From the NCBI GenBank assembly GCA_017304675.1, contig JAFKLS010000020.1, positions 54,300 through 118,299 on the forward strand: 64,000 bases of DNA, written 5' to 3'. The DNA comes from Sphingobacteriia bacterium. Its GTDB lineage: Bacteria > Bacteroidota > Bacteroidia > Chitinophagales > Chitinophagaceae. Every line of letters starts with the position of its first letter. The stretch's first letter is position 1. Positions 6,524-56,176 of this stretch are shown piece by piece. The notes beneath the pieces were generated by a model. It worked only from the letters and a program-made list of their open reading frames with translations, ran no database searches and had not been told where the DNA came from. Made by a program: the position numbers and the translations under genes.

Positions 6524-7363
6524 ATGAAAAAAATATTATTGCCGGCCTTATTGCTTGCAACTTCTTTTTGTATTGCCCAGGTTAAAATGCCTGCACCCAG
6601 CACTACACAAACCATAGTACAGGATTTTGGCATGGGCAAATTAGAACTAACTTATTCAAGGCCCAATATAAAAGGCAGAACCCTGTTTAAAGAAAACAGT
6701 GAATTGGCTCCCTTGGGTAAAGTTTGGAGAACCGGTGCCAATAGCGCAACCAAATTAAAAGTTACCGATCCCATTAATATGGCCGGGCATACAATAGATA
6801 CCGGCAGCTATGCCATTTTTACCATTCCGGGTAAAAAAGATTGGACCATTATCATTAACAAAGATTCTAAGAATTGGGGTACACAGTATGCTGAACAAGA
6901 TGATTTGTTTCGCTTTACCGTAACGGCAGACGCCATGAAAGAAAGTATTGAAACATTTACCATGCAATTTGCAGATATTAAAGCCGAAAGTTGCGAGTTA
7001 CATTTAATGTGGGGAAATACATTTGTAAGAATCCCCATTACCACCAATATAAGGGAAAGATTAAGAGCACAGTTTGAAACAGCATTGAATGCAGATAAAG
7101 TAAACCCCGTTGTTTACCAACAGGCAGCAACATTTTATTTTGAGATGGACAAAGACAATAATAAAGCCTTACAATGCGTTGCTAAAGCTTCAGAAGCCAA
7201 CCCTAAAGCATTTTGGCTTTTTTTACAAAAAGCTAAGATAGAAAAAGCCATGGGAGACAAAGCCAGTGCAAAAGCAGATGCTGAAAAATGTATCAGTTTG
7301 GCTACAGAACAGAAAAACGATGATTATGTTAGATCGGCCAAAGAAGTGTTGAAATCTTTGTAG
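6524..7363 (+). CDS. DUF2911 domain-containing secreted protein with a helical-repeat C-terminus
   Basis: Signal peptide, then GKLELTYSRPNIKGR...WRTGANSATKL, which is typical of DUF2911. Confidence 0.7.
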   Translation: MKKILLPALLLATSFCIAQVKMPAPSTTQTIVQDFGMGKLELTYSRPNIKGRTLFKENSELAPLGKVWRTGANSATKLKVTDPINMAGHTIDTGSYAIFTIPGKKDWTIIINKDSKNWGTQYAEQDDLFRFTVTADAMKESIETFTMQFADIKAESCELHLMWGNTFVRIPITTNIRERLRAQFETALNADKVNPVVYQQAATFYFEMDKDNNKALQCVAKASEANPKAFWLFLQKAKIEKAMGDKASAKADAEKCISLATEQKNDDYVRSAKEVLKSL

Positions 7364-24717: not shown

Positions 24718-27246
24718 TTGTTTAACTTATTTTTGATGTGTATGTTGCAAAACACCATAGGATATAGAATTGTTACACAATGGATGCACAGCAAAGGCCT
24801 GAAACCATTTGCTTTTCAGGAAGAAACCTGGCAACATGTTCTTAAAACGGAAAGTGGTTTGGTAAATGCACCAACCGGCTGTGGCAAAACATATGCTGTT
24901 TTTTTAGGGAGCATTATCCGGTTTATTAATACTCACCCGCAAAGTTATCAGCAACTAAAATATAATGGATTACAATTACTTTGGATTACCCCTCTAAGAG
25001 CGTTGGCCAAAGATATAGCCAGGGCAATGCAGGAAGTCATTACTGAATTGAATATGTCATGGGAAGTGGGCATAAGAAACGGAGATACAACTATCGCAGA
25101 ACGCAACAGACAGAAAAAAAACACACCTGAGATTTTAATTATCACACCCGAAAGCCTCCATTTACTTCTGGCTCAGAAAAACAACCACTCTTTTTTTGCC
25201 TCTTTAGAAACAATTGCAATAGATGAGTGGCATGAGTTAATGGGAAGCAAAAGAGGTGTGCAAACAGAGCTGGCGTTAAGCAGGATCATACCTATTGCTG
25301 CGCACAATAAATCGGGTGTATCTGTTTGGGGAATTAGTGCCACCATTGGCAACTTAGAGGAAGCTAAAGAAGTATTATTAAGCCCGTTGCACCGCTCTAA
25401 GCTTATAGAAACTTTTGTTATACAGGCGAATCTTCCCAAACAAACGGAAATCATTTCCATCATTCCCGATGAAATAGAAAAATATCCCTGGGCCGGGCAT
25501 TTGGGTATAAAGCTGGCCGAAAAAATTGTTCCCATAATTGAGCAAAGCAATACCACACTTATATTCATCAATACAAGAGGCATGAGTGAAATGTGGTATC
25601 AAACATTATTAAATATTGCCCCTCAACTGGCAGGAGCTATTGCTTTGCATCATGGAAGTATTGAACAGGAATTAAGGCTTTGGGTGGAAGAGTCTTTACA
25701 TACAAAAAAACTTAAAGCGGTTGTTTGTACGGCCAGCCTGGATCTCGGTGTTGATTTCAGGCCGGTTGATACGGTTATTCAGGTAGGTTCTCCTAAAGGC
25801 ATTTCCCGTTTTTTGCAACGAGCCGGAAGAAGCGGCCATCAACCCGGAGATACGAGTAAAATCTATTTCCTTCCTACACATTCTCTGGAATTAGTAGAGG
25901 CCGCTGCTTTAAAAAAAGCCGTAAGCAGCCGCATAATAGAAAGTAAAGAACCACTGGTTTTATGTTTTGATGTACTGATGCAGTATATGTGTACCCTTGC
26001 AGTAGGAGACGGATTTGTACCAGAACAGTTATTGCCCGAAATAAGGAGTACCTATAGTTTTTCAGAAATAACCGATACTGAATGGAAAGAAATATTACAG
26101 CACCTCAGTACCGGAGGCACAGCTTTACAGCATTATGATGATTATAAGAAAATAGAGATAACGGATGATGGTGTTTATACTATAAAGAACAGGAGAATGG
26201 CTATGCGCCATCGTATGCATATAGGCACAATAGTAAGCGATGCGATGCTTAAAGTAAAACTGTTGAATGGTAAATATATAGGTGTAATTGAGGAATGGTT
26301 CGTTAGTCGCCTGGAAACAGGTACCACTTTTACGCTGGCAGGAAGAAACCTGGAGCTGGTAGGCATAAAAGATATGAGTGTAATTGTTAAGCCATCTGCT
26401 TCCAAGAAAACAATTGTTCCCAGCTGGATGGGGGGAAGAATGAGTTTATCTGCAAACCTTGGTAAAATATTAAGGGAAACTTTTGCAGAAGCAGAAGCAA
26501 TGGTCAATGGACAATTGACAATGGACAATTCTTGCAATGAGCTACAAGCTTTGCAACCGCTCTTTCAACTTCAACAAGAATTATCACATATTCCATCCGA
26601 TAAAGAAACTTTAATTGAACAGATAGAAAGTAAAGACGGTTACCATCTTTTGGTATATCCTTTTGAAGGAAGGCAGGTACATGAAGCTATGAGTGCACTC
26701 ATAGCTTACAGGATAAGCCGGATAACACCCATTACTTTTTCAATAGCTATGAACGATTATGGTTTTGAACTGCTCAGCGATCAACCCATACCTGTTGATG
26801 ATACCAATGTTCATGAACTTTTCTTTACCAACCATCTGTTGAATGATATTCAAAAAAGCGTAAACAGTACAGAGATGGCAAGGAGAAAATTCAGAGATAT
26901 TGCGGCAATAGGCGGCCTTATTTTTCAGGGATACCCGGGTGAGCATAAAAAAGCAAGGCACCTGCAATCTTCAGCCGGGTTACTTTTCAATGTATTTGAA
27001 GAATATGAGCCCAATAATATTTTACTCAGGCAGGCATATAACGAAGTGCTGGAACAACAGATGGAAGAAGTTAGGCTAAGGAGTGCATTGAACAGGATTG
27101 CGGGCAATAAGATTGTGCTTACTTTTCCTGAAAAGTTTACACCGCTATCTTTTCCTATAGTTGTTGATGGGCTTAACCGAAACAACCTGTCTTCAGAAAA
27201 AATGGAAGAAAGGGTTAAAAGAATGCAGCAACAATTAAACAAATAA
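24718..27246 (+). CDS. Ligase-associated DNA damage response DEXH-box helicase (Lhr-core-like)
   Basis: Contains NAPTGCGKT (motif I), DEWHE (motif II) and QRAGRSGH (motif VI), plus a long C-terminal Lhr-type extension. The start is uncertain (TTG in the track). Confidence 0.85.
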   Translation: MFNLFLMCMLQNTIGYRIVTQWMHSKGLKPFAFQEETWQHVLKTESGLVNAPTGCGKTYAVFLGSIIRFINTHPQSYQQLKYNGLQLLWITPLRALAKDIARAMQEVITELNMSWEVGIRNGDTTIAERNRQKKNTPEILIITPESLHLLLAQKNNHSFFASLETIAIDEWHELMGSKRGVQTELALSRIIPIAAHNKSGVSVWGISATIGNLEEAKEVLLSPLHRSKLIETFVIQANLPKQTEIISIIPDEIEKYPWAGHLGIKLAEKIVPIIEQSNTTLIFINTRGMSEMWYQTLLNIAPQLAGAIALHHGSIEQELRLWVEESLHTKKLKAVVCTASLDLGVDFRPVDTVIQVGSPKGISRFLQRAGRSGHQPGDTSKIYFLPTHSLELVEAAALKKAVSSRIIESKEPLVLCFDVLMQYMCTLAVGDGFVPEQLLPEIRSTYSFSEITDTEWKEILQHLSTGGTALQHYDDYKKIEITDDGVYTIKNRRMAMRHRMHIGTIVSDAMLKVKLLNGKYIGVIEEWFVSRLETGTTFTLAGRNLELVGIKDMSVIVKPSASKKTIVPSWMGGRMSLSANLGKILRETFAEAEAMVNGQLTMDNSCNELQALQPLFQLQQELSHIPSDKETLIEQIESKDGYHLLVYPFEGRQVHEAMSALIAYRISRITPITFSIAMNDYGFELLSDQPIPVDDTNVHELFFTNHLLNDIQKSVNSTEMARRKFRDIAAIGGLIFQGYPGEHKKARHLQSSAGLLFNVFEEYEPNNILLRQAYNEVLEQQMEEVRLRSALNRIAGNKIVLTFPEKFTPLSFPIVVDGLNRNNLSSEKMEERVKRMQQQLNK
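26499..26533. repeat. Heptamer tandem array, AATTGAC family, inside the helicase CDS
   Basis: AATGGTC AATGGAC AATTGAC AATGGAC AATTCTT, five units, encoding MVNGQLTMDNS. Confidence 0.7.
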
Positions 27247-34318: not shown

Positions 34319-34343
34319 AAAATTCCCCTTTAGGGGTTAGGGG
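34319..34343. repeat. C4/G4 mini hairpin element (CCCCTTTAGGGGTTAGGGG), abutting the lpxB start codon
   Basis: AAATTCCCCTTTAGGGGTTAGGGG. 21 of 24 nt are identical to 56153-56176. It is related in reverse complement to the CCCCTGAAGGGG copies. Confidence 0.75.
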
Positions 34344-34344
34344 T

Positions 34345-35460
34345 ATGAAGTATTACATCATTGCAGGAGAAGCCAGCGGAGATTTACACGGAAGCAATCT
34401 GATAAAAAAATTGCACTTGTTAGATGAAAGTGCAGACATAAGATGCTGGGGCGGCGACTTAATGCAGGAAGCAGGCGCCACTGTAGTAAAACACTACAGA
34501 GATCTTGCATTCATGGGCTTTGCTGAAGTAGTTAAAAATCTTCCTACCATTTTAAACAATATTAAATTTTGCAAAAAGGATATATTGAGTTTTAAACCCG
34601 ATGTATTGGTATTGGTAGATTATCCTGGATTTAACTTACGTATTGCAGATTGGGCAAAGAAACAGGGATTTAAAGTGGCATATTATATTTCTCCGCAGGT
34701 ATGGGCATGGAAAGAAAACAGGGTAAAAAAAATGAAGCAATGCATAGATAAAATGCTCTGTATTCTTCCATTTGAAAAAGAGTATTTTAAGGATAAATGG
34801 AATTGGGAGGTGGAATATGTTGGGCACCCGTTGGTTGAAGTGATTGATGAAAGCATAAAAAAAGGAGCTGAAAATAAACTAAGCGAACGCCCTGTAATTG
34901 CCTTATTGCCCGGAAGCAGGAAACAGGAGATCGCCAAAAAATTACCGGTAATGCTATCGGTAAACAAGCACTTTCCAAATTACCATTTTATTGTTGCGCA
35001 GGCTCCCGGGCAGGATGATGCTTTTTACAAACCTTTTTTAGAACAGTATGCAAATGTTTCCCTTGTTAAAAATCAAACATATAACTTATTAAAACAGAGT
35101 GTGGCTGCGCTGGTTACCAGTGGCACGGCTACTTTAGAAACTGCCCTATTCAATGTTCCGGAAGTGGTTTGCTATAAAGGAAGCAATATAAGTTACCAAA
35201 TAGCTAAACGGTTGATCAGCATTAAATATATATGCCTGGTAAACCTTATTATGGATAAGCCGGTAGTAAAAGAACTGATCCAAAACGAGCTTAACGAAAA
35301 AAACTTGACTGAAGAATTGAATTTATTATTAAATAATTCCGAAAGGCAATTACAACTTTCTTCAGATTATTCCGCTTTACACAAATTATTATCGCTCGGC
35401 GGCAATGCCTCGGCTAAAGCGGCCACTGCTATCTATAAAATGGTTTCTCCGAAAGGGTAA
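34345..35460 (+). CDS. lpxB: Lipid-A-disaccharide synthase
   Basis: MKYYIIAGEASGDLHGSNLI and the overall GT19 layout. Confidence 0.9.
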   Translation: MKYYIIAGEASGDLHGSNLIKKLHLLDESADIRCWGGDLMQEAGATVVKHYRDLAFMGFAEVVKNLPTILNNIKFCKKDILSFKPDVLVLVDYPGFNLRIADWAKKQGFKVAYYISPQVWAWKENRVKKMKQCIDKMLCILPFEKEYFKDKWNWEVEYVGHPLVEVIDESIKKGAENKLSERPVIALLPGSRKQEIAKKLPVMLSVNKHFPNYHFIVAQAPGQDDAFYKPFLEQYANVSLVKNQTYNLLKQSVAALVTSGTATLETALFNVPEVVCYKGSNISYQIAKRLISIKYICLVNLIMDKPVVKELIQNELNEKNLTEELNLLLNNSERQLQLSSDYSALHKLLSLGGNASAKAATAIYKMVSPKG

Positions 35461-43608: not shown

Positions 43609-44943
43609 TTATTTTTTAGTTTTAAATTCTACTCTTCTGTTCTCTGCTCTGCCTTTTACTGTTTTGTTATCGGCAACTGGCTGAGAAGAACCAAAACCTG
43701 CAGCACTTAATCTTTCAGCGGCAATACCATTTTTCACAAAATAATCTTTTACTGCATCAGCACGTTTTTGAGATAATGCAAGGTTTGTTTTATCAGAACC
43801 TGTATTATCGGTATAACCTTCAATAATCAAATTCAAAGAAGCATGGTCTTTTAATATAGTAACGGCTTTATCAAGTTCTGCTTTAGCCACTTTTGTTAAT
43901 ACGGCAGTGCCTGTAGCAAACTGAACCTGTTTGTAGTTGAAGCCAAAGTCTTTAATTTCAGGGCAACCTGCATTAGAAGCTGGTCCTTTTTCAGTAGGGC
44001 ATTTATCTTCTTCATCGTTTACACCATCACCATCGGTATCAGGGATAGGACAACCCTGGTAACGTGCAACACCGGGTACAGTAGGGCATTTATCTTCTTC
44101 ATCGTTAATACCATCACCATCGGTATCAGGAATTGGGCAACCTTGGTATTTTGCCACACCCGGTACGGTTGGGCATTTGTCGTTCTCATCATTAATACCA
44201 TCACCATCGGTATCAGGAACAGGACAACCCTGGTATTTTGCCACACCCGGTACAGTAGGGCATTTATCCTGATCATCAGGAATACCATCTTTGTCTGTAT
44301 CTACCACAACTGGAGCCGGAGGTGGTGGTGGAGTTGGAGCCAACACAGGAGCAGCTTTTTTCTCAGTTAATGGTGATGAGAAACCTAGAGAATAATGGAA
44401 ATTATAGTTAGAAAGATCACTAACTCTTAAATGGTAATTCCATTGCAGGTTAATAAAAGAACCTTCGCCTAATTTAAATTGTAAACCGGTTCCAACAGGA
44501 ATATACGCATAATAATATGTACCTCCTACCATACCAGCACCAACACCGGCAGACAAATAAGGTACTACCGCATAGTTATCTGTTAACAGTTTTAAGTTAA
44601 CATTGGCATCTGATTCTAGTAAGAACTTATCGGTTCCAACCTTTGTTCCATTATAAAAAGGGTAGTTTACAAAAGTGCCATGCAAACTGGCCATAAAATC
44701 AATGTAATCGTTCAATCCCTGAAAATAGGATATAGACATACCCGGATTCATATTAGATACTTTATTCCAGCTACCATCTCTTAACACAGAGCCTAATCCA
44801 TTCTGGCCGATCAAATCCGGAGTTACATAATCTTTCAAAAAAAAGTTGATGCCTAATGTAGGGCGTTTTGTTAAGTCTGTTTTTTGGCTAAATGCAATTA
44901 CTGTCGAAAATAATACCACCAGTAAAGAAGCAATTTTTCTCAT
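43609..44943 (-). CDS. OmpA family outer-membrane protein with thrombospondin type-3 repeats
   Basis: An N-terminal beta-barrel, a Pro-rich linker, repeated DKCPTVPGVAKYQGCP.PDTDGDGINDE units, and a C-terminal OmpA domain (NTGSDKTNLALSQKRADAV). Confidence 0.85.
   Translation of the reverse strand: MRKIASLLVVLFSTVIAFSQKTDLTKRPTLGINFFLKDYVTPDLIGQNGLGSVLRDGSWNKVSNMNPGMSISYFQGLNDYIDFMASLHGTFVNYPFYNGTKVGTDKFLLESDANVNLKLLTDNYAVVPYLSAGVGAGMVGGTYYYAYIPVGTGLQFKLGEGSFINLQWNYHLRVSDLSNYNFHYSLGFSSPLTEKKAAPVLAPTPPPPPAPVVVDTDKDGIPDDQDKCPTVPGVAKYQGCPVPDTDGDGINDENDKCPTVPGVAKYQGCPIPDTDGDGINDEEDKCPTVPGVARYQGCPIPDTDGDGVNDEEDKCPTEKGPASNAGCPEIKDFGFNYKQVQFATGTAVLTKVAKAELDKAVTILKDHASLNLIIEGYTDNTGSDKTNLALSQKRADAVKDYFVKNGIAAERLSAAGFGSSQPVADNKTVKGRAENRRVEFKTKK
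44002..44290. repeat. 87-bp tandem repeat, about 3.3 copies, encoding the TSP3 calcium-binding units
   Basis: Units start at 44002, 44089, 44176 and 44263 and are roughly 85 percent identical by eye. Confidence 0.8.
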
Positions 44944-46044: not shown

Positions 46045-46362
46045 TTATTTGGAATTTATTAGCTCAATTTTTATCACAGCGTCAATATTAATGGTTCCAA
46101 AAACATGAGGAAATTCTTCATTAACAGATGGAGCCAGTTCAAATTTCAATTCGTTTTGCAATTTTGAAATATCAATATGCAATTTCACAAGATCATTCTT
46201 CCCTTGAAAGTATCTTCCTAAAACACCTGCAACTTGTTCTGCTTTGCTGCAATGAATAAAGCCTTCTGTGTGCAATGATGCTGCTTCATAAAATCCTTTC
46301 TGCAAAGCTGTTTCCCATTCTTGTTTTGTGGTTACATGATAGATCACTTCCATTTCTTCCAC
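46045..46362 (-). CDS. DUF952 domain-containing protein
   Basis: 105 aa. IYHVTTKQEWE...EGFIHCS...FPHVFG is the DUF952 pattern. It overlaps the aroC stop by 1 nt. Confidence 0.75.
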   Translation of the reverse strand: MEEMEVIYHVTTKQEWETALQKGFYEAASLHTEGFIHCSKAEQVAGVLGRYFQGKNDLVKLHIDISKLQNELKFELAPSVNEEFPHVFGTINIDAVIKIELINSK

Positions 46363-47357
46363 TATTTAATTACTCTAGAAATTCTTTGTTCTAATAACAT
46401 TGCATCTGCTAAAACAATAGCTGTTGCTGCTTCTACAATCACTGGCGCTCTTAATGCAACACAGAGATCATGCCTTCCTTTAATAGAAAAAGTTTCTTGT
46501 TGTTCTGTATCCCAATTCGAGCTTGTTTGTTCTTTTGGCGTTGATGAAGTTGGTTTAATAGCAATTCTGAAAACAAGATCGTTGCCATTACTGATACCAC
46601 CAACAATTCCACCGGCATGATTTGTTCTAGTTGCACCTTGCATATTTTCAATAGCATCGTTGTGTTCACTACCGAACATTTTTGCAGCAGCAAAACCTGC
46701 TCCGAACTCTACTCCTTTTACTGCAGGAATCGTAAACATCATATGCGCTAAAGAAGATTCCAACGAATCAAAATAAGGTTCGCCTAAACCAACCGGCATT
46801 CCTGTTACAACACATTCAACAATACCACCAACAGAATCTTTTGCATCAATTGCTTTTTGCAATCCTGCTTCAATATCTTTCAATCCAGCAACTTCTGTTA
46901 TGATTGCTGTAATTTGTAATTGCGATAATAATTTTTTTGCAATAGCGCCTGCAGCCACTAATCCGGTTGTTAATCTTGCACTGAAATGCCCACCACCTCT
47001 ATAATCTTCATTACCACCGAATTTTTCATGAGCCACCCAATCGGCATGTCCCGGTCTTGGAATACTTCTTTGTTTTTGATAATCTTCACTTCTTGTATTG
47101 TTATTCTCAAACAAAATAGTGATGGGAAATCCGGTTGTTTTTCCATTGAATATCCCACTCTTGAAAATTGGATAATCCGCTTCCTGACGAGGTGTTGTTC
47201 CTTTTTGTTTGCCACCTTTTCTCCTTTCCAAATCGAACAACAGGTCTTCTTCATTCAATGATAAACCTGCAGGACAACCATCAACAGTTATTCCAACACA
47301 TTCACCATGTGATTCACCAAAAATGGATACACGAAATATGCGACCGAATGAATTCAT
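46362..47357 (-). CDS. aroC: Chorismate synthase
   Basis: MNSFGRIFRVSIFGESHG and GRHD are present. I moved the start to the ATG at 47357; the track start at 47378 is TTG. Confidence 0.9.
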   Translation of the reverse strand: MNSFGRIFRVSIFGESHGECVGITVDGCPAGLSLNEEDLLFDLERRKGGKQKGTTPRQEADYPIFKSGIFNGKTTGFPITILFENNNTRSEDYQKQRSIPRPGHADWVAHEKFGGNEDYRGGGHFSARLTTGLVAAGAIAKKLLSQLQITAIITEVAGLKDIEAGLQKAIDAKDSVGGIVECVVTGMPVGLGEPYFDSLESSLAHMMFTIPAVKGVEFGAGFAAAKMFGSEHNDAIENMQGATRTNHAGGIVGGISNGNDLVFRIAIKPTSSTPKEQTSSNWDTEQQETFSIKGRHDLCVALRAPVIVEAATAIVLADAMLLEQRISRVIK

Positions 47358-47386
47358 TTTATAATTTTCAAATGACAATTTACGAA

Positions 47387-48703
47387 TTACAAGTGATTTA
47401 CTGAGGCTCCCAATTTTTGCAAATGCTCATAAAAGTTGGGATACGATTTATTGATGGCATTCGCTTCTTCAATTGCTGTATTGCCTTCTGCTCTTAACGC
47501 TGCGACAGCACAAGCCATTGCAATACGATGATCGTGACGAGAATGCACTGTTGCTCCTTTCAATCCGTTGCCACCTTTTATCATCATCAGGTCATCCTGC
47601 AATTCTATTTCAACACCTAACTTTTTAAATTCTTCCTGTAAGGTTAATCCTCTGTCACTTTCTTTATGCGCCAATCTTGAAACACCTTCTATCACTGTTG
47701 TTCCTTCGCAATAAGATGCTAATGCAACAAGCGGCGGAAATAAATCCGGACAATCAGTTGCATTAAAATGAAATGCTTTACCCCTAGCCCCTGAAGGGGG
47801 ATTAGAGATTTCAATTTCATTATCTCTAATAGAAATTTTGCAACCACAATCTTGCAAAGCTTCAATAATTTTTTTATCTGCCTGTGTTGATTGAATATCT
47901 AATCCTTTCACTACAATCCCATTTTGTGCAGCAACAGCACCAGCCACTAATAAAAATGCACCTCCACTCCAATCGCTTTCAACAGTGTAATTGACAATTG
48001 ACAATTGACGATTGACAATTGACGATTGAAAAATAAATTTTTCATAATTATGATTAACCGGAACATTCAAACCGAAGTCTTCCATCACTTTTAGAGTGAG
48101 ATCAACATAAGGTTTGCTCTTCAGATTATTCACTGAAATACTAACACCATCAGCGTTTGAAGCCGCATAGGCCAACAAAAATCCTGTTAAGAATTGAGAA
48201 CTTAAACTGCCATCGATTGTGATGTTTTTTGGTTGTAACGGACCTTTTACAACTAACGGAAGTTTCCCTTGATTCGATTGAATGAAAACATCTAACTGCG
48301 GAAGAATTTCATCAAAAAAATTCATCGGCCTTGTTGTTAAACTTCCCGAACCGTTGATCGTAATTTCACTTGAACTCAATGCAACCAATGGTGTGAACAT
48401 TCTAATGCTTAATCCGCTTTCACCACAATTGATAGATATAGGTGAATGGTGAGTGGTGAATGGTGAATGAATAATAGCATTCGTGCTATCTATCAATAAT
48501 TGACCATTTACAATTGACCATTCACATCCCATTTCTTTAATGATGCTTAACGCCGCTTTATCATCGTTACTGATGCCGGGATTATGTATGATTGATTTTC
48601 CTTTTCGCACCAAAGCCGCCGCACATGCCCTTTGCATAGAGCTTTTAGATGCAGGTGCAGTAATGGTTCCGGAAACAAATGAAGGTTGTATTTGAACGAT
48701 CAC
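47387..48703 (-). CDS. aroA: 3-phosphoshikimate 1-carboxyvinyltransferase (EPSP synthase), carrying three mini-repeat segments
   Basis: APASKSSMQRA, LAHKESDR and HDHRIAMA are present. At 438 aa it is longer than I expect for the family. Confidence 0.9.
   Translation of the reverse strand: MIVQIQPSFVSGTITAPASKSSMQRACAAALVRKGKSIIHNPGISNDDKAALSIIKEMGCEWSIVNGQLLIDSTNAIIHSPFTTHHSPISINCGESGLSIRMFTPLVALSSSEITINGSGSLTTRPMNFFDEILPQLDVFIQSNQGKLPLVVKGPLQPKNITIDGSLSSQFLTGFLLAYAASNADGVSISVNNLKSKPYVDLTLKVMEDFGLNVPVNHNYEKFIFQSSIVNRQLSIVNYTVESDWSGGAFLLVAGAVAAQNGIVVKGLDIQSTQADKKIIEALQDCGCKISIRDNEIEISNPPSGARGKAFHFNATDCPDLFPPLVALASYCEGTTVIEGVSRLAHKESDRGLTLQEEFKKLGVEIELQDDLMMIKGGNGLKGATVHSRHDHRIAMACAVAALRAEGNTAIEEANAINKSYPNFYEHLQKLGASVNHL
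47781..47800. repeat. C4/G4 mini hairpin element inside aroA
   Basis: CCCCTAGCCCCTGAAGGGGG, encoding PPSGARG. It shares the 11-mer CCCCTGAAGGG with 55558 and 56067. Confidence 0.75.
47989..48030. repeat. Heptamer tandem array, AATTGAC x6 (42 bp), inside aroA
   Basis: AATTGAC AATTGAC AATTGAC GATTGAC AATTGAC GATTGAA, encoding QSSIVNRQLSIVNY. Confidence 0.85.
48431..48472. repeat. Heptamer tandem array, AATGGTG family (42 bp), inside aroA
   Basis: GATAGAT ATAGGTG AATGGTG AGTGGTG AATGGTG AATGAAT, encoding HSPFTTHHSPISI. Confidence 0.75.
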
Positions 48704-48705
48704 GT

Positions 48706-49725
48706 TTATAAAGATTGAATGATTTGCTCCAGCTCACTTAAAGGAATTTGTTTGATCACTCCTTTACCAATCTTCTCCAATAAAATATAGTTGATGGTTG
48801 TTCTTTCTCGTTTCTTGTCCATTTTCAACACATCAAAAACCTTTTGTTTGTCAAACTGAACATAGGTTGGCAAGCCATATTGCTCCAATATTTTTACAAC
48901 AGTTTCAGTTTGTTTGAACTTAAGTAATTGATGAGAAATATGCGAAGCATAAGTCATGCCGATTGAAACCGCTTGCCCATGCATTAAATCGTATTGATTT
49001 TCCAAAGCATGTCCAAGTGTATGACCAAAGTTTAAAAGTTTTCTTTCACCTTGTTCAAATTCATCGTTCTGAACTACTTTTAATTTTATTTTGGCATTCC
49101 GCTGAATAAGCAAACAAGCCTCTTTTTTTCTTTTAGTGTAAAAGTTTACATCATGCTTTTGTAGCTCTTTAAACATAGCAGCATCTTTAATGCATGCATG
49201 CTTAATAATTTCTGCAAAACCATTCTGCCATTCTTTCTCTGGTAATGTATTTAGAAAAATCAGGTCGTGCAGAATGAAGGAGGGTTGCTTCGTAACACCA
49301 ATAACATTTTTATATATATCAACATCAATTCCGTTTTTACCGCCAATGCTTGCATCCACTAAAGCAAGCAATGTTGTTGGCACAAAACCAAATTGTATCC
49401 CACGCATATAAATACTGGCAACATAACCGGTGATATCTGTAATAACACCACCGCCAACGCCTACCAGAAAAGTTTTTCTATCAGCTTCTAATTCTATTAA
49501 TTGTTGAATAATGGAATCAACAGTTGCCTGAACTTTATATTCTTCTCCTGCTTTTAAAACAATGGTCTTATAATTTTTGAACCGCTTTGCGTGTGCTTCA
49601 AAAATATTTTCATCGGTAATAAAAATGGTATTCTTAATATCGATCAACTCTTTGAGATGGCTGATACCATTTGCGAAATAAAAATCGGTTGAACTATTAT
49701 TGAATTTGAAAGTTTGCTTAAACAT
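48706..49725 (-). CDS. aroB: 3-dehydroquinate synthase
   Basis: GGGVITDITGYVA, DASIGGKNG and LNFGHTLGHALE are present. I moved the start to the ATG at 49725. Confidence 0.9.
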   Translation of the reverse strand: MFKQTFKFNNSSTDFYFANGISHLKELIDIKNTIFITDENIFEAHAKRFKNYKTIVLKAGEEYKVQATVDSIIQQLIELEADRKTFLVGVGGGVITDITGYVASIYMRGIQFGFVPTTLLALVDASIGGKNGIDVDIYKNVIGVTKQPSFILHDLIFLNTLPEKEWQNGFAEIIKHACIKDAAMFKELQKHDVNFYTKRKKEACLLIQRNAKIKLKVVQNDEFEQGERKLLNFGHTLGHALENQYDLMHGQAVSIGMTYASHISHQLLKFKQTETVVKILEQYGLPTYVQFDKQKVFDVLKMDKKRERTTINYILLEKIGKGVIKQIPLSELEQIIQSL

Positions 49726-49753
49726 GGTCAATAGTCAATAGTCCATTGTCAAT
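49726..49753. repeat. Heptamer tandem array (GTCAATA, the AATTGAC family in reverse complement), intergenic
   Basis: GGTCAAT AGTCAAT AGTCCAT TGTCAAT. Confidence 0.65.
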
Positions 49754-49770
49754 ATTTATGAATCAACGAT

Positions 49771-49798
49771 CGTGGACTGTCGACCGTTGACCGTTAAC
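49771..49798. repeat. Heptamer tandem array (CGTTGAC family), intergenic
   Basis: CGTGGAC TGTCGAC CGTTGAC CGTTAAC, ending at the stop codon of the upstream gene. Confidence 0.65.
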
Positions 49799-50941: not shown

Positions 50942-51020
50942 AAGTCAAAATTCAAAAGTGAAAAGTCAAAACCCAAAGCAATAAACTTTTTCTTTTCACT
51001 TTTGCCTTTTTACTTTTTAT
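50942..51020. repeat. Inverted pair of heptamer arrays (GTSAAAA x5 / TTTTSAC x5) forming a long hairpin
   Basis: GTCAAAA TTCAAAA GTGAAAA GTCAAAA CCCAAAG, then CTTTTTC TTTTCAC TTTTGCC TTTTTAC TTTTTAT. The perfect 13-bp core is CAAAAGTGAAAAG (50953-50965) pairing with CTTTTCACTTTTG (50992-51004). Confidence 0.75.
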
Positions 51021-53641: not shown

Positions 53642-54535
53642 TTACTTAATAATTTTTCTGATCTTATTTGCCTTCTCCATCAGCTCATTTAAAAATTCAA
53701 GGTTCTCTTTTTCCAAAGCGCTTTTAAATTTCCTGAGTTGAGAAATATGTTCATTTAAAACATCCAATACATTTTCTTTGTTCTGCATAAAAATCGGCGC
53801 CCACATAGCTGGATTACTTTTTGCCAAACGAACGGTGCTTTCAAAACCACCACCGGCCAATTCAAAAATGGCATCTTCTTCTTTTTCTTTCTCTAAAACC
53901 GTATTCGCCAAAGCAAAAGAAGTGATGTGTGAAATATGGCTTACATAAGCCGCATGCATATCGTGATCATGTGCATTCATATACACCAAATGCATTCCCA
54001 ATTCTTTATAAATATTTTCAACAATCTCAACTGCTGTTGCATCACTTTTTTCTTTTTCACAGATCACACAAGCCCTGCCTGCAAACGCATTTTGCACAGC
54101 TGCTTCCGGACCACTATATTCTGTTCCCCACATAGGATGTGTTGCAACAAATCTTTTTCTGTTTGCATGATTTTCTAAAGCCTCGCATAAAGCAAATTTT
54201 GTAGACCCCGCATCCACCACAATTTGTTTGTCATTCACCAAATCCATTATTTGTTGCATAATAGGAATGGTAGCATCAACAGGAATGGCCACATAAATCA
54301 AATCAGCTTTTTTAACGGCTTCTTCCAAAGGCAATACTTCATCTACCAAATTCAATTGCAACACTTTTTGCTTTGTTTCTTCTCTATTGCACACACCAAT
54401 GATATGCGATGCCAACTTTTTATTTTTTAAAGCCAACGCAAATGAACCACCAATTAATCCAACACCCACGACACAAACTGACAATTGAGAATTGACAATT
54501 GACAATTGGAGATTATTATCTGTACTATTTGTCAT
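53642..54535 (-). CDS. tyrA: Prephenate dehydrogenase
   Basis: The Rossmann segment VVGVGLIGGSFALAL and HPMWG are present. The first ~18 codons are encoded by a heptamer array, so the true start is uncertain. Confidence 0.85.
   Translation of the reverse strand: MTNSTDNNLQLSIVNSQLSVCVVGVGLIGGSFALALKNKKLASHIIGVCNREETKQKVLQLNLVDEVLPLEEAVKKADLIYVAIPVDATIPIMQQIMDLVNDKQIVVDAGSTKFALCEALENHANRKRFVATHPMWGTEYSGPEAAVQNAFAGRACVICEKEKSDATAVEIVENIYKELGMHLVYMNAHDHDMHAAYVSHISHITSFALANTVLEKEKEEDAIFELAGGGFESTVRLAKSNPAMWAPIFMQNKENVLDVLNEHISQLRKFKSALEKENLEFLNELMEKANKIRKIIK
54476..54517. repeat. Heptamer tandem array, AATTGAC family, encoding the tyrA N-terminus
   Basis: AACTGAC AATTGAG AATTGAC AATTGAC AATTGGA GATTATT, encoding NNLQLSIVNSQLSV. 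Confidence 0.8.
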
Positions 54536-54581
54536 TACTCTGTTTGCTTGATTTAATGATACTAATTAATAATTTCAGCAA

Positions 54582-54887
54582 CTATTTACAATCAGAATTA
54601 AGGCTTTCAAAGAGCTTTTGATCCAAATAACCTGATTGATGCAATAATTCTAACCAATATTCAGTTTCATTTGCTTCTTTCAGTGCAATTGATAATTTAT
54701 GAATAAAATCAGTTTTACTTTGAGCTTGTTCTGCTTCTCGAATATTTGCTCCAATTGAAGTTCCACTTCGCAACAATTGCTTTGACAAAATATGTTCTTG
54801 CTTCTCCGAACACAAATATTGATTGCATTTAACTATTCTAAGTGCAAAGGCAAAACTTTTCTCTTTTAAAATATTTTCTTTCTTCAT
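54582..54887 (-). CDS. Four-helix-bundle protein (23S rRNA intervening-sequence protein / Avd family)
   Basis: About 101 aa. SFAFALRIVK...QLLRSGTSIGANIREA...F..KLSIALKEANETEYWLELL is the TIGR02436/PF05635 pattern. ATG at 54887. Confidence 0.8.
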   Translation of the reverse strand: MKKENILKEKSFAFALRIVKCNQYLCSEKQEHILSKQLLRSGTSIGANIREAEQAQSKTDFIHKLSIALKEANETEYWLELLHQSGYLDQKLFESLNSDCK

Positions 54888-54888
54888 T

Positions 54889-54916
54889 GTCAATTATCAA
54901 TTGTCAATTTTTAATT
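54889..54916. repeat. Heptamer tandem array GTCAATT (inverted relative to 54476-54517)
   Basis: GTCAATT ATCAATT GTCAATT TTTAATT. It spans the gap between the aminotransferase stop and the four-helix-bundle start. Confidence 0.75.
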
Positions 54917-56121
54917 CTTCTGATTGCTTCTTCAAAACGCTCAATACTTCCGCACAAACTCACTCTTATATAACCATCTCCTGCCGTTCCAAAAATTCCA
55001 CCCGGAGTGATGAACACATTTGAGTTGTATAAAACTTCATCACTCAATTCATATCCGTTTTTATATGTTGAAGGGATCTTTGCCCACACAAACATTCCAA
55101 CTTGTTTTGTAGAATATTCACATTGCAATAGATCCAACAATTCAAAAACCTTTGTTCTTCTTTCTGTGTAAATTTTATTCACGCTATCGTACCAATCTTT
55201 ATCCAAGCTCAACGCTTTTGCGGCAGCCAATTGTACCGGCAAGAACATACCGCTATCCATATTGCTTTTAAACTTCAATACTTCATCAATTCTTTCTTTA
55301 GCACCACACAACATACCAACACGCCATCCCGCCATATTAGATGATTTACTTAATGAGTTTAATTCTAACACAACATCTTTTGCGCCATCTACACTCAACA
55401 AACTTTTAGGATTATTATTCAAAATAAAACTGTAGGGATTATCGTGAATGATGAGGATATTATTCTTCCTCCCAAATGCAACAATTTTTTTAAACAATGC
55501 ATCATTAGCATTTTGTCCGGTTGGCATTTGCGGATAATTCACAAAAAGCCCCTTAATCCCCTGAAGGGGAAATGATGAAATCAATTTTTCTAATTCAGCA
55601 AAATCGGGTTCATAATTATTTTCTTCTTTTAAATTATAATATACAGGCGTAGCTCCTGAAAGCTTTACTGCACTTGAATAAGTTGGATATCCAGGATTGG
55701 GCACCAATACTCCCACTCCTTCTTCAAAATACGTCATACAGATATGCATGATGCCTTCTTTACTTCCAATCAATGGCAAAATTTCTGTATCCGCATTCAA
55801 CTCAACATTGTACCATTTCTTATACCAATCCTTCACTGCATTTCTCAATACAGGAGAACCTTTGTAAGATTGATAAGCATGAACATTAGGCTTTGCGCTT
55901 TCTTCCTGCAACACTTTTATAACATCAGGGTGTGGTGGTAAATTCGGACTACCAATTCCCAAATTGATGATATTCTTTCCTTGCTTATTCAACTCATCAA
56001 TCTCTCTTAATTTTTGAGAGAAGTAATATTCGCCTATACCTTCTAAACGTTTGGCCACCCCCCACCCCCCTGAAGGGAGAGTTAATATAGATTCTGTTTC
56101 GCTTGTTGTATTTGATTTCAT
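54904..56121 (-). CDS. Class I/II PLP-dependent aminotransferase (probable aromatic/aspartate aminotransferase of the operon)
   Basis: SLSKSSNMAGWRVG (PLP lysine) and NPGYPTY are present. It carries two mini hairpin elements. Confidence 0.85.
   Translation of the reverse strand: MKSNTTSETESILTLPSGGWGVAKRLEGIGEYYFSQKLREIDELNKQGKNIINLGIGSPNLPPHPDVIKVLQEESAKPNVHAYQSYKGSPVLRNAVKDWYKKWYNVELNADTEILPLIGSKEGIMHICMTYFEEGVGVLVPNPGYPTYSSAVKLSGATPVYYNLKEENNYEPDFAELEKLISSFPLQGIKGLFVNYPQMPTGQNANDALFKKIVAFGRKNNILIIHDNPYSFILNNNPKSLLSVDGAKDVVLELNSLSKSSNMAGWRVGMLCGAKERIDEVLKFKSNMDSGMFLPVQLAAAKALSLDKDWYDSVNKIYTERRTKVFELLDLLQCEYSTKQVGMFVWAKIPSTYKNGYELSDEVLYNSNVFITPGGIFGTAGDGYIRVSLCGSIERFEEAIRRIKN
55549..55569. 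repeat. C4/G4 mini hairpin element inside the aminotransferase
   Basis: CCCCTTAATCCCCTGAAGGGG, encoding FPLQGIKG. Confidence 0.75.
56055..56077. repeat. C4/G4 mini hairpin element inside the aminotransferase N-terminal region
   Basis: CCACCCCCCACCCCCCTGAAGGG, encoding LPSGGWGV. Confidence 0.7.
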
Positions 56122-56152: not shown

Positions 56153-56176
56153 AAATTCTCCTTTAGGGGTTAGCGA
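56153..56176. repeat. C4/G4 mini hairpin element overlapping the pheA stop codon
   Basis: AAATTCTCCTTTAGGGGTTAGCGA. 21 of 24 nt are identical to 34320-34343. Confidence 0.75.

Follow-up and report, generated by a model that had tools for sequence, protein, structure and literature searches.

The gene aroA, which encodes 5-enolpyruvylshikimate-3-phosphate (EPSP) synthase, an essential enzyme of aromatic amino acid synthesis, contains several segments of short-repeat DNA within its reading frame in a 64,000-nt stretch from a Sphingobacteriia bacterium of the family Chitinophagaceae (positions 54,300–118,299 of contig JAFKLS010000020.1; hereafter, the window). The gene is flanked by aroB (48706–49725) and aroC (46362–47378), forming an aroB-aroA-aroC cluster in which the GTG start codon of aroA abuts the aroB stop (region 48635–48703). 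A first-pass annotation of this DNA had flagged three segments, here called A, B and C, as repeats that keep the aroA frame open; examination of the sequence and Tandem Repeats Finder (TRF) confirmed them and added a further one, segment 0:

47387–48703, minus strand: aroA (EPSP synthase) coding sequence, an open reading frame (ORF) of 438 aa with a GTG start, assigned from Pfam, PDB alignments and a structural model
48498–48526, minus strand: segment 0, a repeat with a 14-nt period composed of AATGGTC/AATTGTA heptamers and translated as EWSIVNGQLL, in the beta-hairpin of residues 61–72
48431–48472, minus strand: segment A, an array of CATTCAC heptamers (sense), translated as HSPFTTHHSPISI, residues 79–91, with clean units at 48438–48469
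47989–48030, minus strand: segment B, six heptamer units, (GTCAATT/GTCAATC)6 in the sense strand, translated as SSIVNRQLSIVNY, residues 226–239
47781–47800, minus strand: segment C, a dispersed 19-nt C4/G4 element, exactly matching CCCCTTYAGGGGNTRGGGG and translated as (P)PSGARG, residues 301–308

In segment B, TRF detected 5.9 copies of AATTGAC with 91 % matches or, with a 14-nt unit (AATTGACGATTGAC), 96 % matches; it is translated as QSSIVNRQLSIVNY, and the self-identity of the segment at a lag of 7 nt (p7) is 0.86. For segment A, TRF reported 4.1 copies of GGTGAAT at 48441–48469. The array is real, although the six units initially ascribed to it resolve into four clean units and two degenerate flanking ones; the orthologous array in two relatives, L204 and L205, has exactly six units (42 nt). 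Segment 0 was detected as 2.1 copies of AATTGACCATTCAC with 93 % matches. Segment C reads CCCCTAGCCCCTGAAGGGGG on the plus strand and CCCCCTTCAGGGGCTAGGGG on the sense strand, which is translated as PPSGARG, and its sense element corresponds to CCCCTTCAGGGGCTAGGGG with one additional C in front.

The repeats found in aroA occur beyond chance. The AATTGAC dimer AATTGACAATTGAC, allowing up to two mismatches, has 24 matches in the window versus 1.47 expected, while the 19-mer CCCCTTYAGGGGNTRGGGG is present in five copies versus 0.05 expected, and the pattern CCCC-N4-GGGG in three versus 0.35. The AATGGTG unit alone is weaker, with four occurrences versus 0.77 expected and a count reached in 2 of 100 shuffles, and it is supported by the data from the family.

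The AroA product matches Pfam PF00275 (EPSP_synthase) with E = 4e-84, over residues 8–428 and profile positions 5–417 of 417, and aligns end to end with EPSP synthases of solved structure (5xwb, 7tm4). These alignments show that the equivalents of the residues binding shikimate-3-phosphate and phosphoenolpyruvate are kept (K20, S21, R25, R125, S168-S169-Q170, D320, K347, E348, R351, H392, R393 and K419); in the Escherichia coli enzyme, the binding residues are K22, S23, R27, R124, S169-Q171, D313, K340, E341, R344, H385, R386 and K411. An AlphaFold2 model, obtained from a 27-sequence alignment and with a mean predicted local distance difference test (pLDDT) score of 87.7, displays the two-domain, inside-out alpha/beta fold and matches closed EPSP synthases from E. 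coli and Klebsiella (1g6s, 3fk0, 7tm5) with template modeling (TM) scores of 0.85–0.87 in Foldseek. Judged from its alignments and predicted structure, AroA is a bona fide EPSP synthase whose catalytic motifs are intact. Several database entries of this same protein are only 416 aa long because gene callers began at Met23, and the same applies to P0002, P0012 and P0077. In class I enzymes, the loop LGNAGTAMRPL is glyphosate-determining; its counterpart here, residues 92–103 (48410–48430), reads NCGESGLSIRMF throughout the Chitinophagaceae AroA and follows the end of segment A by two residues.

That the segments sit in loops, one of the two options raised for them, is supported by the model, where A, B and C lie between strands in a confident structure, as seen from secondary structure and pLDDT. 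Segment A corresponds to a loop (residues 80–88) leading into a strand (89–92), and its block 81–90 has a pLDDT of 65, the lowest of the protein. Segment B comprises a loop (226–235) and a strand (236–240), with block pLDDT of 82 and 75, and segment C a loop (301–308) after the strand 296–300, with a block pLDDT of 72. Segment 0 forms two strands (61–65 and 68–72) with an NG turn at 66–67 and is well ordered, with pLDDT around 95. All segments are therefore predicted by the model to occupy beta-hairpin loops or turns.

We compared the length of AroA first with 26 close homologues and then with 80 species representatives fetched together with their DNA. AroA proteins from Chitinophagaceae, 402–455 aa long, are the closest homologues. 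The suggestion that repeats encode some 35 extra residues on top of a family baseline near 403 aa is not borne out: typical family lengths are around 421–424 aa and, measured from one conserved anchor to the other, the window protein has 395 aa versus a family mode of 380–382, an excess of about 14 aa. Segment A, with 16 residues versus the 8-residue baseline GVxPVSNE, contributes about 8 aa, and segment C, with SNPPSGARGK versus GPAPLK, about 4 aa. In turn, the loop of segment B has 12–15 aa in every member of the family, and its net gain is zero. The view of the segments as insertions thus stands for A and C, which are longer than in most relatives, and fails for B, which in the alignment is a native loop of unchanged length. 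Segments A and B are also nearly gap-free against the gammaproteobacterial EPSP synthases 5xwb and 7tm4. Neither clean pairs of filled and empty sites nor target-site duplications could be defined at A and C in the comparisons of the window with L081 and of L004 with L006, because the junctions are too diverged. Homologue P0046 has a segment A of 21 aa and PPSGGGG in segment B. A different hairpin family, with a C/T-arm and a G/A-arm, occupies another loop of aroA in L205 (P0024), where the in-frame insert CTCCCTCCAAAGGAGGGAG, between window residues 182 and 183, is translated as LQLPPKEGEQE; P0028 and P0046 have related sequences (alignment columns 200–214), and the related peptides are PSQGG and PSEGG.

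The distribution of heptamer periodicity was examined in 81 aroA genes from the Chitinophagaceae, using intervals of 35 nt and a lag-7 self-identity of at least 0.68, over a background of 0.18 % of the intervals. Strong 7-nt periodicity was found only at residues 60–74, 80–89 and 225–239, in about five, about three and at least 11 species, respectively. The first-pass annotation's picture of one enzyme tolerating three inserts is therefore too narrow: the segments are present, and they coincide with hotspots shared by the family and with repeat families spread over the genome. At segment B, the repeated unit differs among species, being GTCAATT in the window, AATCAGA in L005, CAACCAC in L009, ATTCAAA in L024, CAAACTA in L031, CATACTC in L036, AACTCCA in L037 and CCAAACT in L040. 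The segment A arrays from the clade of the window have a common starting His codon and a common 7-nt phase with differing units, which are CATTCAC in the window and, in four copies, in L205; CATTCAA in L001; and, in L204, a first CATTCAC followed by GACTCCC. The site of segment 0 is occupied in L039 by a perfect (CAATGGT)3 array translated as QWSMVNG, from which the EWSIVNG of the window is a few substitutions away. Nucleotide differences between the window and L081, a relative with 82 % identity, amount to 17 % outside the segments and 36–70 % inside, with near-equal length. Units that differ among species while keeping their register thus point to concerted turnover, and we read these segments as old arrays renewed in situ through concerted evolution, with selection acting on loop length and on an open frame. 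In two relatives the same unit is found in both an aroA loop and an adjacent spacer: AAATTCA in L024 (4661–4691 and 5287–5330) and AAAACTx in L037 (3909–3998, 4669–4693 and segment A).

Heptamer arrays are not restricted to aroA. The window contains 11 arrays with a period of 7 nt versus 0–3 for periods of 6 and 8–12 nt; 737 kb of Chitinophagaceae DNA contained 37 period-7 arrays versus 0–2 for periods of 5, 6 and 9–12 nt, and a set of 713 kb of independent contigs yielded 37 again. AATTGAC-type arrays appear at six loci of the window, starting at 26498, 47989, 48498, 49727, 54476 and 54883. Units were shared more often within a locus (21 %) than between loci (8 %; permutation p ~0.002), and AATGGTG and similar units recur across several genera. 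Among 81 sampled loci, 18 arrays were intergenic and 18 lay in ORFs with 120 aa or more, a split that is biased because the sample was centred on aroA. The hallmarks of short tandemly repeated repetitive (STRR) sequences and long simple sequence repeats (LSSR), namely an over-representation of period-7 arrays and the dispersal of one unit over many loci, are both found here. The arrays located outside aroA are:

26498–26529, plus strand: CAATGGA/CAATTGA array, translated as AMVNGQLTMDN in the WH_Lhr/DEAD_assoc linker of an Lhr-type helicase
49727–49754, minus strand: intergenic TATTGAC/AATGGAC array ending 1 nt before the aroB ATG (49725)
49772–49795: second intergenic array of the aro cluster
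54476–54508, minus strand: GTCAATT-family array in the N-terminal tail of a prephenate dehydrogenase (NLQLSIVNSQLSV), just before its Rossmann motif
54883–54916, minus strand: AATTGAC/AATTGAT array whose first unit contributes the TGA stop of an aminotransferase and which ends 1 nt before the next ATG

The array at 54476–54508 would be a 5′ leader if prephenate dehydrogenase starts at a downstream TTG, and the ORF following the one at 54883–54916 belongs to the 23S_rRNA_IVP family (54580–54887). Nearly all spacers of the aro cluster contain heptamer arrays (49727–49754, 49772–49795, 50942–51019 and 54883–54916). In L071, the arrays at 6947–6981 (CGTGAAC/CGTGAAT) and 6995–7038 (CTCACGT/ATTCACG) have reverse-complementary units and constitute a long inverted array pair.

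Segment C belongs to the second repeat family, whose element has a consensus of about 19 nt, CCCCTTYAGGGG-N-T-R-GGGG. Besides the copy in aroA, the window contains four others:

34325–34343, plus strand: perfect copy, CCCCTTTAGGGGTTAGGGG, ending 1 nt before the ATG at 34345
55551–55569, minus strand: copy CCCCTTCAGGGGATTAAGG, in frame as FPLQGIKG in a class I/II aminotransferase
56060–56078, minus strand: degenerate copy TCCCTTCAGGGGGGTGGGG, translated as LPSGGWGV in the N-terminal tail of that same aminotransferase
56158–56176, plus strand: degenerate copy CTCCTTTAGGGGTTAGCGA, between two minus-strand genes

An exact-pattern scan identified the 19-mer in at least 120 metagenome contigs, nearly all with 34–45 % GC and with unrelated flanks. 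The element often ends 1–4 nt before an ATG, with its G-rich end nearest to the start codon, as occurs in L004 (1788), L006 (3981), L035 (2934 and 3982) and the metagenome loci L084–L203. Among the matches listed, 19 of 151 copies have an ORF-opening ATG no more than 15 nt away from the G-rich end, in 7 cases at +1, versus 3 at the other end, and 16 of the 151 lie deep inside long ORFs. These results suggest that CCCCTTYAGGGGNTRGGGG may be a leader element. In related genomes, the 19-mer is found just before the aroA start (L006, L035) or within the gene, at sites A and C (L004, L008, L033). The window has five copies per 64 kb. Presence and absence were both seen at these two sites of aroA, where no clean empty site was found. 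In an aroA tree constructed with the segments masked, the segment C insert is nearly monophyletic, with a few losses, and perfect copies at this position are those of L004, L008, L033 and the window, the loci where other copies are most numerous. Additionally, the synonymous positions of segment C are identical in four lineages whose proteins are only 63–70 % identical. This may reflect copies converting one another, insertion anew, or selection that acts on the nucleic acid itself.

Ten metagenome loci (L097, L098, L100, L140, L155, L170, L176, L186, L196 and L199) contain a longer shared upstream part, approximately AAACTAACTTAGTT, that is palindromic (AACTAA/TTAGTT), and its sequence suggests that it could be part of a larger composite element. 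The 19-mer also forms tandem arrays with a period of about 30–41 nt, with three copies each and conserved spacers, in L127 (1643–1723) and L153 (2334–2434), as well as a few inverted doublets in the metagenome loci L094, L122, L142 and L179. A G-quadruplex was considered for the C4/G4 element and dropped because most copies have only two G-runs.

Whether the segments are translated as loops or removed had been left as the question to settle, and the open frames and the loops of the model favour translation, with nothing found in favour of removal. The aroA frame is open in 80 of 80 orthologues. Arrays situated inside ORFs are free of stops in 18 of 18 cases in the sense strand, a count that holds partly by construction because these arrays were classed as lying inside open frames, and in 6 of 18 in the antisense strand, with 13 of 36 for the strands of intergenic arrays. 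The C4/G4 copies, in turn, occupy exactly the open frames, read as PSGxxG, PLQG and PLGV. A scan of the whole window with Rfam at the gathering threshold found only a tRNA and no family at the aroA segments. Predicted folding energies are 0 kcal/mol for the CATTCAC array, which would be completely unstructured, and -7 to -13 kcal/mol for the C4/G4 copies, whose stability does not exceed that of shuffled sequences (z between -1.0 and +0.8); on the basis of RNA structure alone, a function is neither favoured nor ruled out. Translation is far likelier than removal because the segments form loops or turns in the model, the catalytic motifs are intact and all 80 frames are open, and the aroA segments are most likely translated, as judged from sequence and model.

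Our preferred interpretation, to which we give a probability of roughly 0.6, is that aroA encodes a working EPSP synthase and that its translated segments represent local members of two short-repeat families that are spread over the genome in this lineage of the Chitinophagaceae. The first would consist of STRR-like heptanucleotide tandem arrays built from a few preferred units, mainly AATTGAC/AATGGTC and AATGGTG, and the second of the dispersed C4/G4 element. Both would reside mainly at gene boundaries, often ending 1–4 nt before a start codon, and would survive inside genes under three conditions: in permissive parts of the protein (the loops and turns of beta-hairpins, linkers and terminal tails), in an orientation that is free of stops in any frame, and with a length that keeps the frame, which for the arrays would be attained by steps of three units (21 nt, or 7 aa). 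The aroA arrays would have occupied the same three structural sites over family-level time, with a turnover through replication slippage or short-tract conversion by which a variant spreads through the array and units swap in register. Segment B would look overwritten, rather than inserted, because selection probably holds the length of the loop roughly constant. The segment C copy, in turn, would derive from one old insertion and persist in perfect form only where its family is abundant.

Several points weigh against this interpretation, or at least against its mechanism. The placement of the segments at the surface rests on the secondary structure and pLDDT of the model and on general knowledge of the EPSP synthase/MurA fold, in which beta-hairpins face the solvent and helices are buried. 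Slippage by 21 nt, in either direction, was not seen among five sequences with at least 97 % identity (three haplotypes from a 90 % cluster), which show no change in array length and do have amino-acid changes in segment A. Furthermore, slippage alone does not account for the recurrence of heptamer units at unlinked loci and across genera, for the units common to coding and intergenic arrays of one genome, or for the identical synonymous positions of segment C in four lineages; these three observations point to dispersal, to the conversion of one copy by another, or to selection acting on DNA or RNA. On balance, we prefer slippage in situ plus selection for the arrays, and regard dispersal or conversion as a serious rival, especially for the 19-mer.

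Taken to its full extent, dispersal would mean that the C4/G4 element, and possibly whole arrays, are non-autonomous DNA copied by an enzyme into new sites, including the aroA loops, in the manner of the Nostoc small dispersed repeats (SDR), REPINs or Rickettsia palindromic elements (RPE), and that overwriting at equal length results from an insertion followed by a compensating deletion. We consider this possible, if rather unlikely. It would explain the near-identical 19-mers at unrelated loci of the window and in the metagenome contigs, the sharing of heptamer units within genomes, the coincidence of perfect segment C copies with the copy-richest loci and the further in-frame hairpin inserts of homologues, such as that of L205; moreover, both A and C contain copies in L004, and each of these represents a net gain of 15 nt compared with L006, a near relative. 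However, neither a clean empty site nor a target-site duplication could be defined, the essentially monophyletic insert at segment C fits one old event better than repeated hits, and the change of units in register at segment A fits evolution in situ.

The placement bias of the repeats directly upstream of start codons, strong and in one orientation, also raises the idea that they are functional signals, DNA or RNA binding sites or structures whose copies in aroA are kept or tolerated for that function. They could be, for instance, leader elements for translation initiation in the Bacteroidota, which is independent of Shine-Dalgarno sequences, or sites for nucleoid or repair proteins. Such a role would agree with the conservation of synonymous positions in the segment C hairpin across four diverged lineages and with the contrast between an unstructured CATTCAC array and C4/G4 copies that fold. 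TAACTGA arrays in the Beggiatoaceae are likewise located before start codons, and translational regulation has been proposed for them (PMC4679880). Nevertheless, hairpin energies are ordinary compared to shuffles, copies are decayed or lost in many orthologues without visible consequence, and the different units used by different species at one site are hard to square with one conserved binding site. To our knowledge, no factor is known for these repeats, which we count against a signal function, and we deem it improbable that this explains the aroA segments.

It is similarly doubtful that a sequence-specific machinery in Chitinophagaceae, acting by conversion, template-switching or transposition, actively propagates the arrays and the 19-mer, or homogenises their copies, and repeatedly rewrites permissive loops of essential enzymes, even a beta-hairpin, at constant length. 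If this were true, a mobile microsatellite system would be writing part of the proteome, and the translated heptad peptides (SIVNGQL, HSPFTTH and PSGxxG) would be its footprint.

We find it highly implausible that aroA is a contingency locus, in which the gain or loss of units switches the pathway off and on. Slippage by a single unit would certainly shift the frame, because 7 is not a multiple of three, and heptanucleotide repeats do drive phase variation in some pathogens (PMC4692102). Against this, all 80 orthologues are in frame, as are 120 homologues among the matches listed, a list that would under-represent frameshifted alleles because it derives from a database of predicted proteins. 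Also, the five nearly identical sequences show no length polymorphism, the arrays are short (4–6 units) and partly degenerate, the same arrays are also found between genes and, within unrelated housekeeping genes, in linkers and tails, and aroA serves core biosynthesis in bacteria that are free-living. Finally, the notion that the mRNA loses the segments by excision or the protein by splicing, giving a mature enzyme of family-typical length, has nothing in its favour beyond the length excess itself and is scarcely credible, given that the segments, of 20–42 nt, have no intron or intein features and no Rfam match, that frame and stop-free orientation are kept everywhere examined, and that B (loop and strand) and 0 (hairpin) are structure needed by every homologue, so that their removal would delete native structure.

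Several aspects of these repeats have precedents in other bacteria. PMC4679880, which summarises Mrazek 2007, documents that heptanucleotide simple sequence repeats are over-represented and placed just upstream of start codons. Beggiatoaceae, cyanobacteria and five Bacteroidetes contain TAACTGA arrays, and published heptamer arrays are overwhelmingly intergenic, the coding example from Bacteroidetes being a set of two units near the end of purC (PMC4679880); G-rich heptamers were described in Xanthomonas and Nostoc (PMC4692102). The arrays reported here resemble the STRR and TAACTGA arrays in that the heptamer is by far the commonest unit length, one unit is found at many loci and arrays are situated a few nucleotides upstream of start codons. 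They differ in their units (AATTGAC, AATGGTC and AATGGTG), in their host family and in that the arrays here, of 4–6 units, encode loops in the middle of an essential enzyme and recur family-wide at shared structural positions. The published units CCCCAGT, TTGGTCA, CAACAGT and TAACTGA were absent from our compiled unit lists, for which no search was aimed at them. Literature searches for heptanucleotide repeats that covered Bacteroidetes and Chitinophaga retrieved the TAACTGA paper only, and nothing on coding arrays in Chitinophagaceae; a full-text search with the core 12-mers of the C4/G4 element found no bacterial report.

Concerning the 19-mer, SDR4–6 from Nostoc punctiforme are reportedly hairpin-capable repeats of around 20–27 nt, with hundreds of copies, and are said to be found with heptamer arrays, sometimes in genes, and to be present or absent at orthologous sites. 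The C4/G4 element is likewise a very small hairpin-capable repeat that accompanies heptamer arrays and is sometimes located in genes, although in a different phylum, the comparison being based on the description of the SDR. RPE are said to be palindromes of 100–150 bp located in frame in genes of Rickettsia, with reduced intracellular genomes, to which they add 30–50 aa. In both cases selfish or neutral repeat DNA is translated as extra peptide at permissive surface positions of housekeeping proteins, whereas the units here are of 7 and 19 nt, add 0–8 aa and reside in free-living Bacteroidota; the aroA segments are in frame, but span 19–42 nt and are not long palindromes. HIP1 from cyanobacteria and the DNA uptake sequences of Pasteurellaceae and Neisseria are single motifs of 8–12 nt that also occur in coding regions. 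As in our case, these are short motifs kept beyond codon constraint and tolerated in the less constrained parts of proteins; unlike ours, they are not tandem and do not combine a hairpin with G-runs. The shaping of aroA loops by repeat DNA is thus unusual, yet precedented, and our verdict is that STRR/SDR-like repeat families, in a phylum new for them, are found time and again at the same permissive positions in an essential enzyme.

If so, non-triplet microsatellites and a tiny hairpin repeat, mostly regarded as oddities of intergenic DNA, can last for family-level time in an essential enzyme of well-known structure, and even encode a well-ordered beta-hairpin. The three hotspots represent a natural map of the EPSP synthase loops that accept arbitrary sequence, useful for the engineering of this herbicide-target enzyme, and the orthologous arrays with their in-register turnover offer a tractable system to study how dispersed heptamers spread, in comparison with the cyanobacterial STRR and TAACTGA. 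The 19-mer CCCCTTYAGGGGNTRGGGG, in turn, is abundant in environmental Bacteroidota-like contigs, with a biased orientation before start codons. The repeats yield low-complexity peptides and may confuse gene callers.

Outside the families described above, the window has an 87-nt tandem repeat (43992–44289; 3.4 copies, 85 % matches) within a gene for an OmpA-family protein (43609–44943, minus strand). It matches thrombospondin type 3 repeats, being an ordinary protein-repeat array unrelated to the heptamers.

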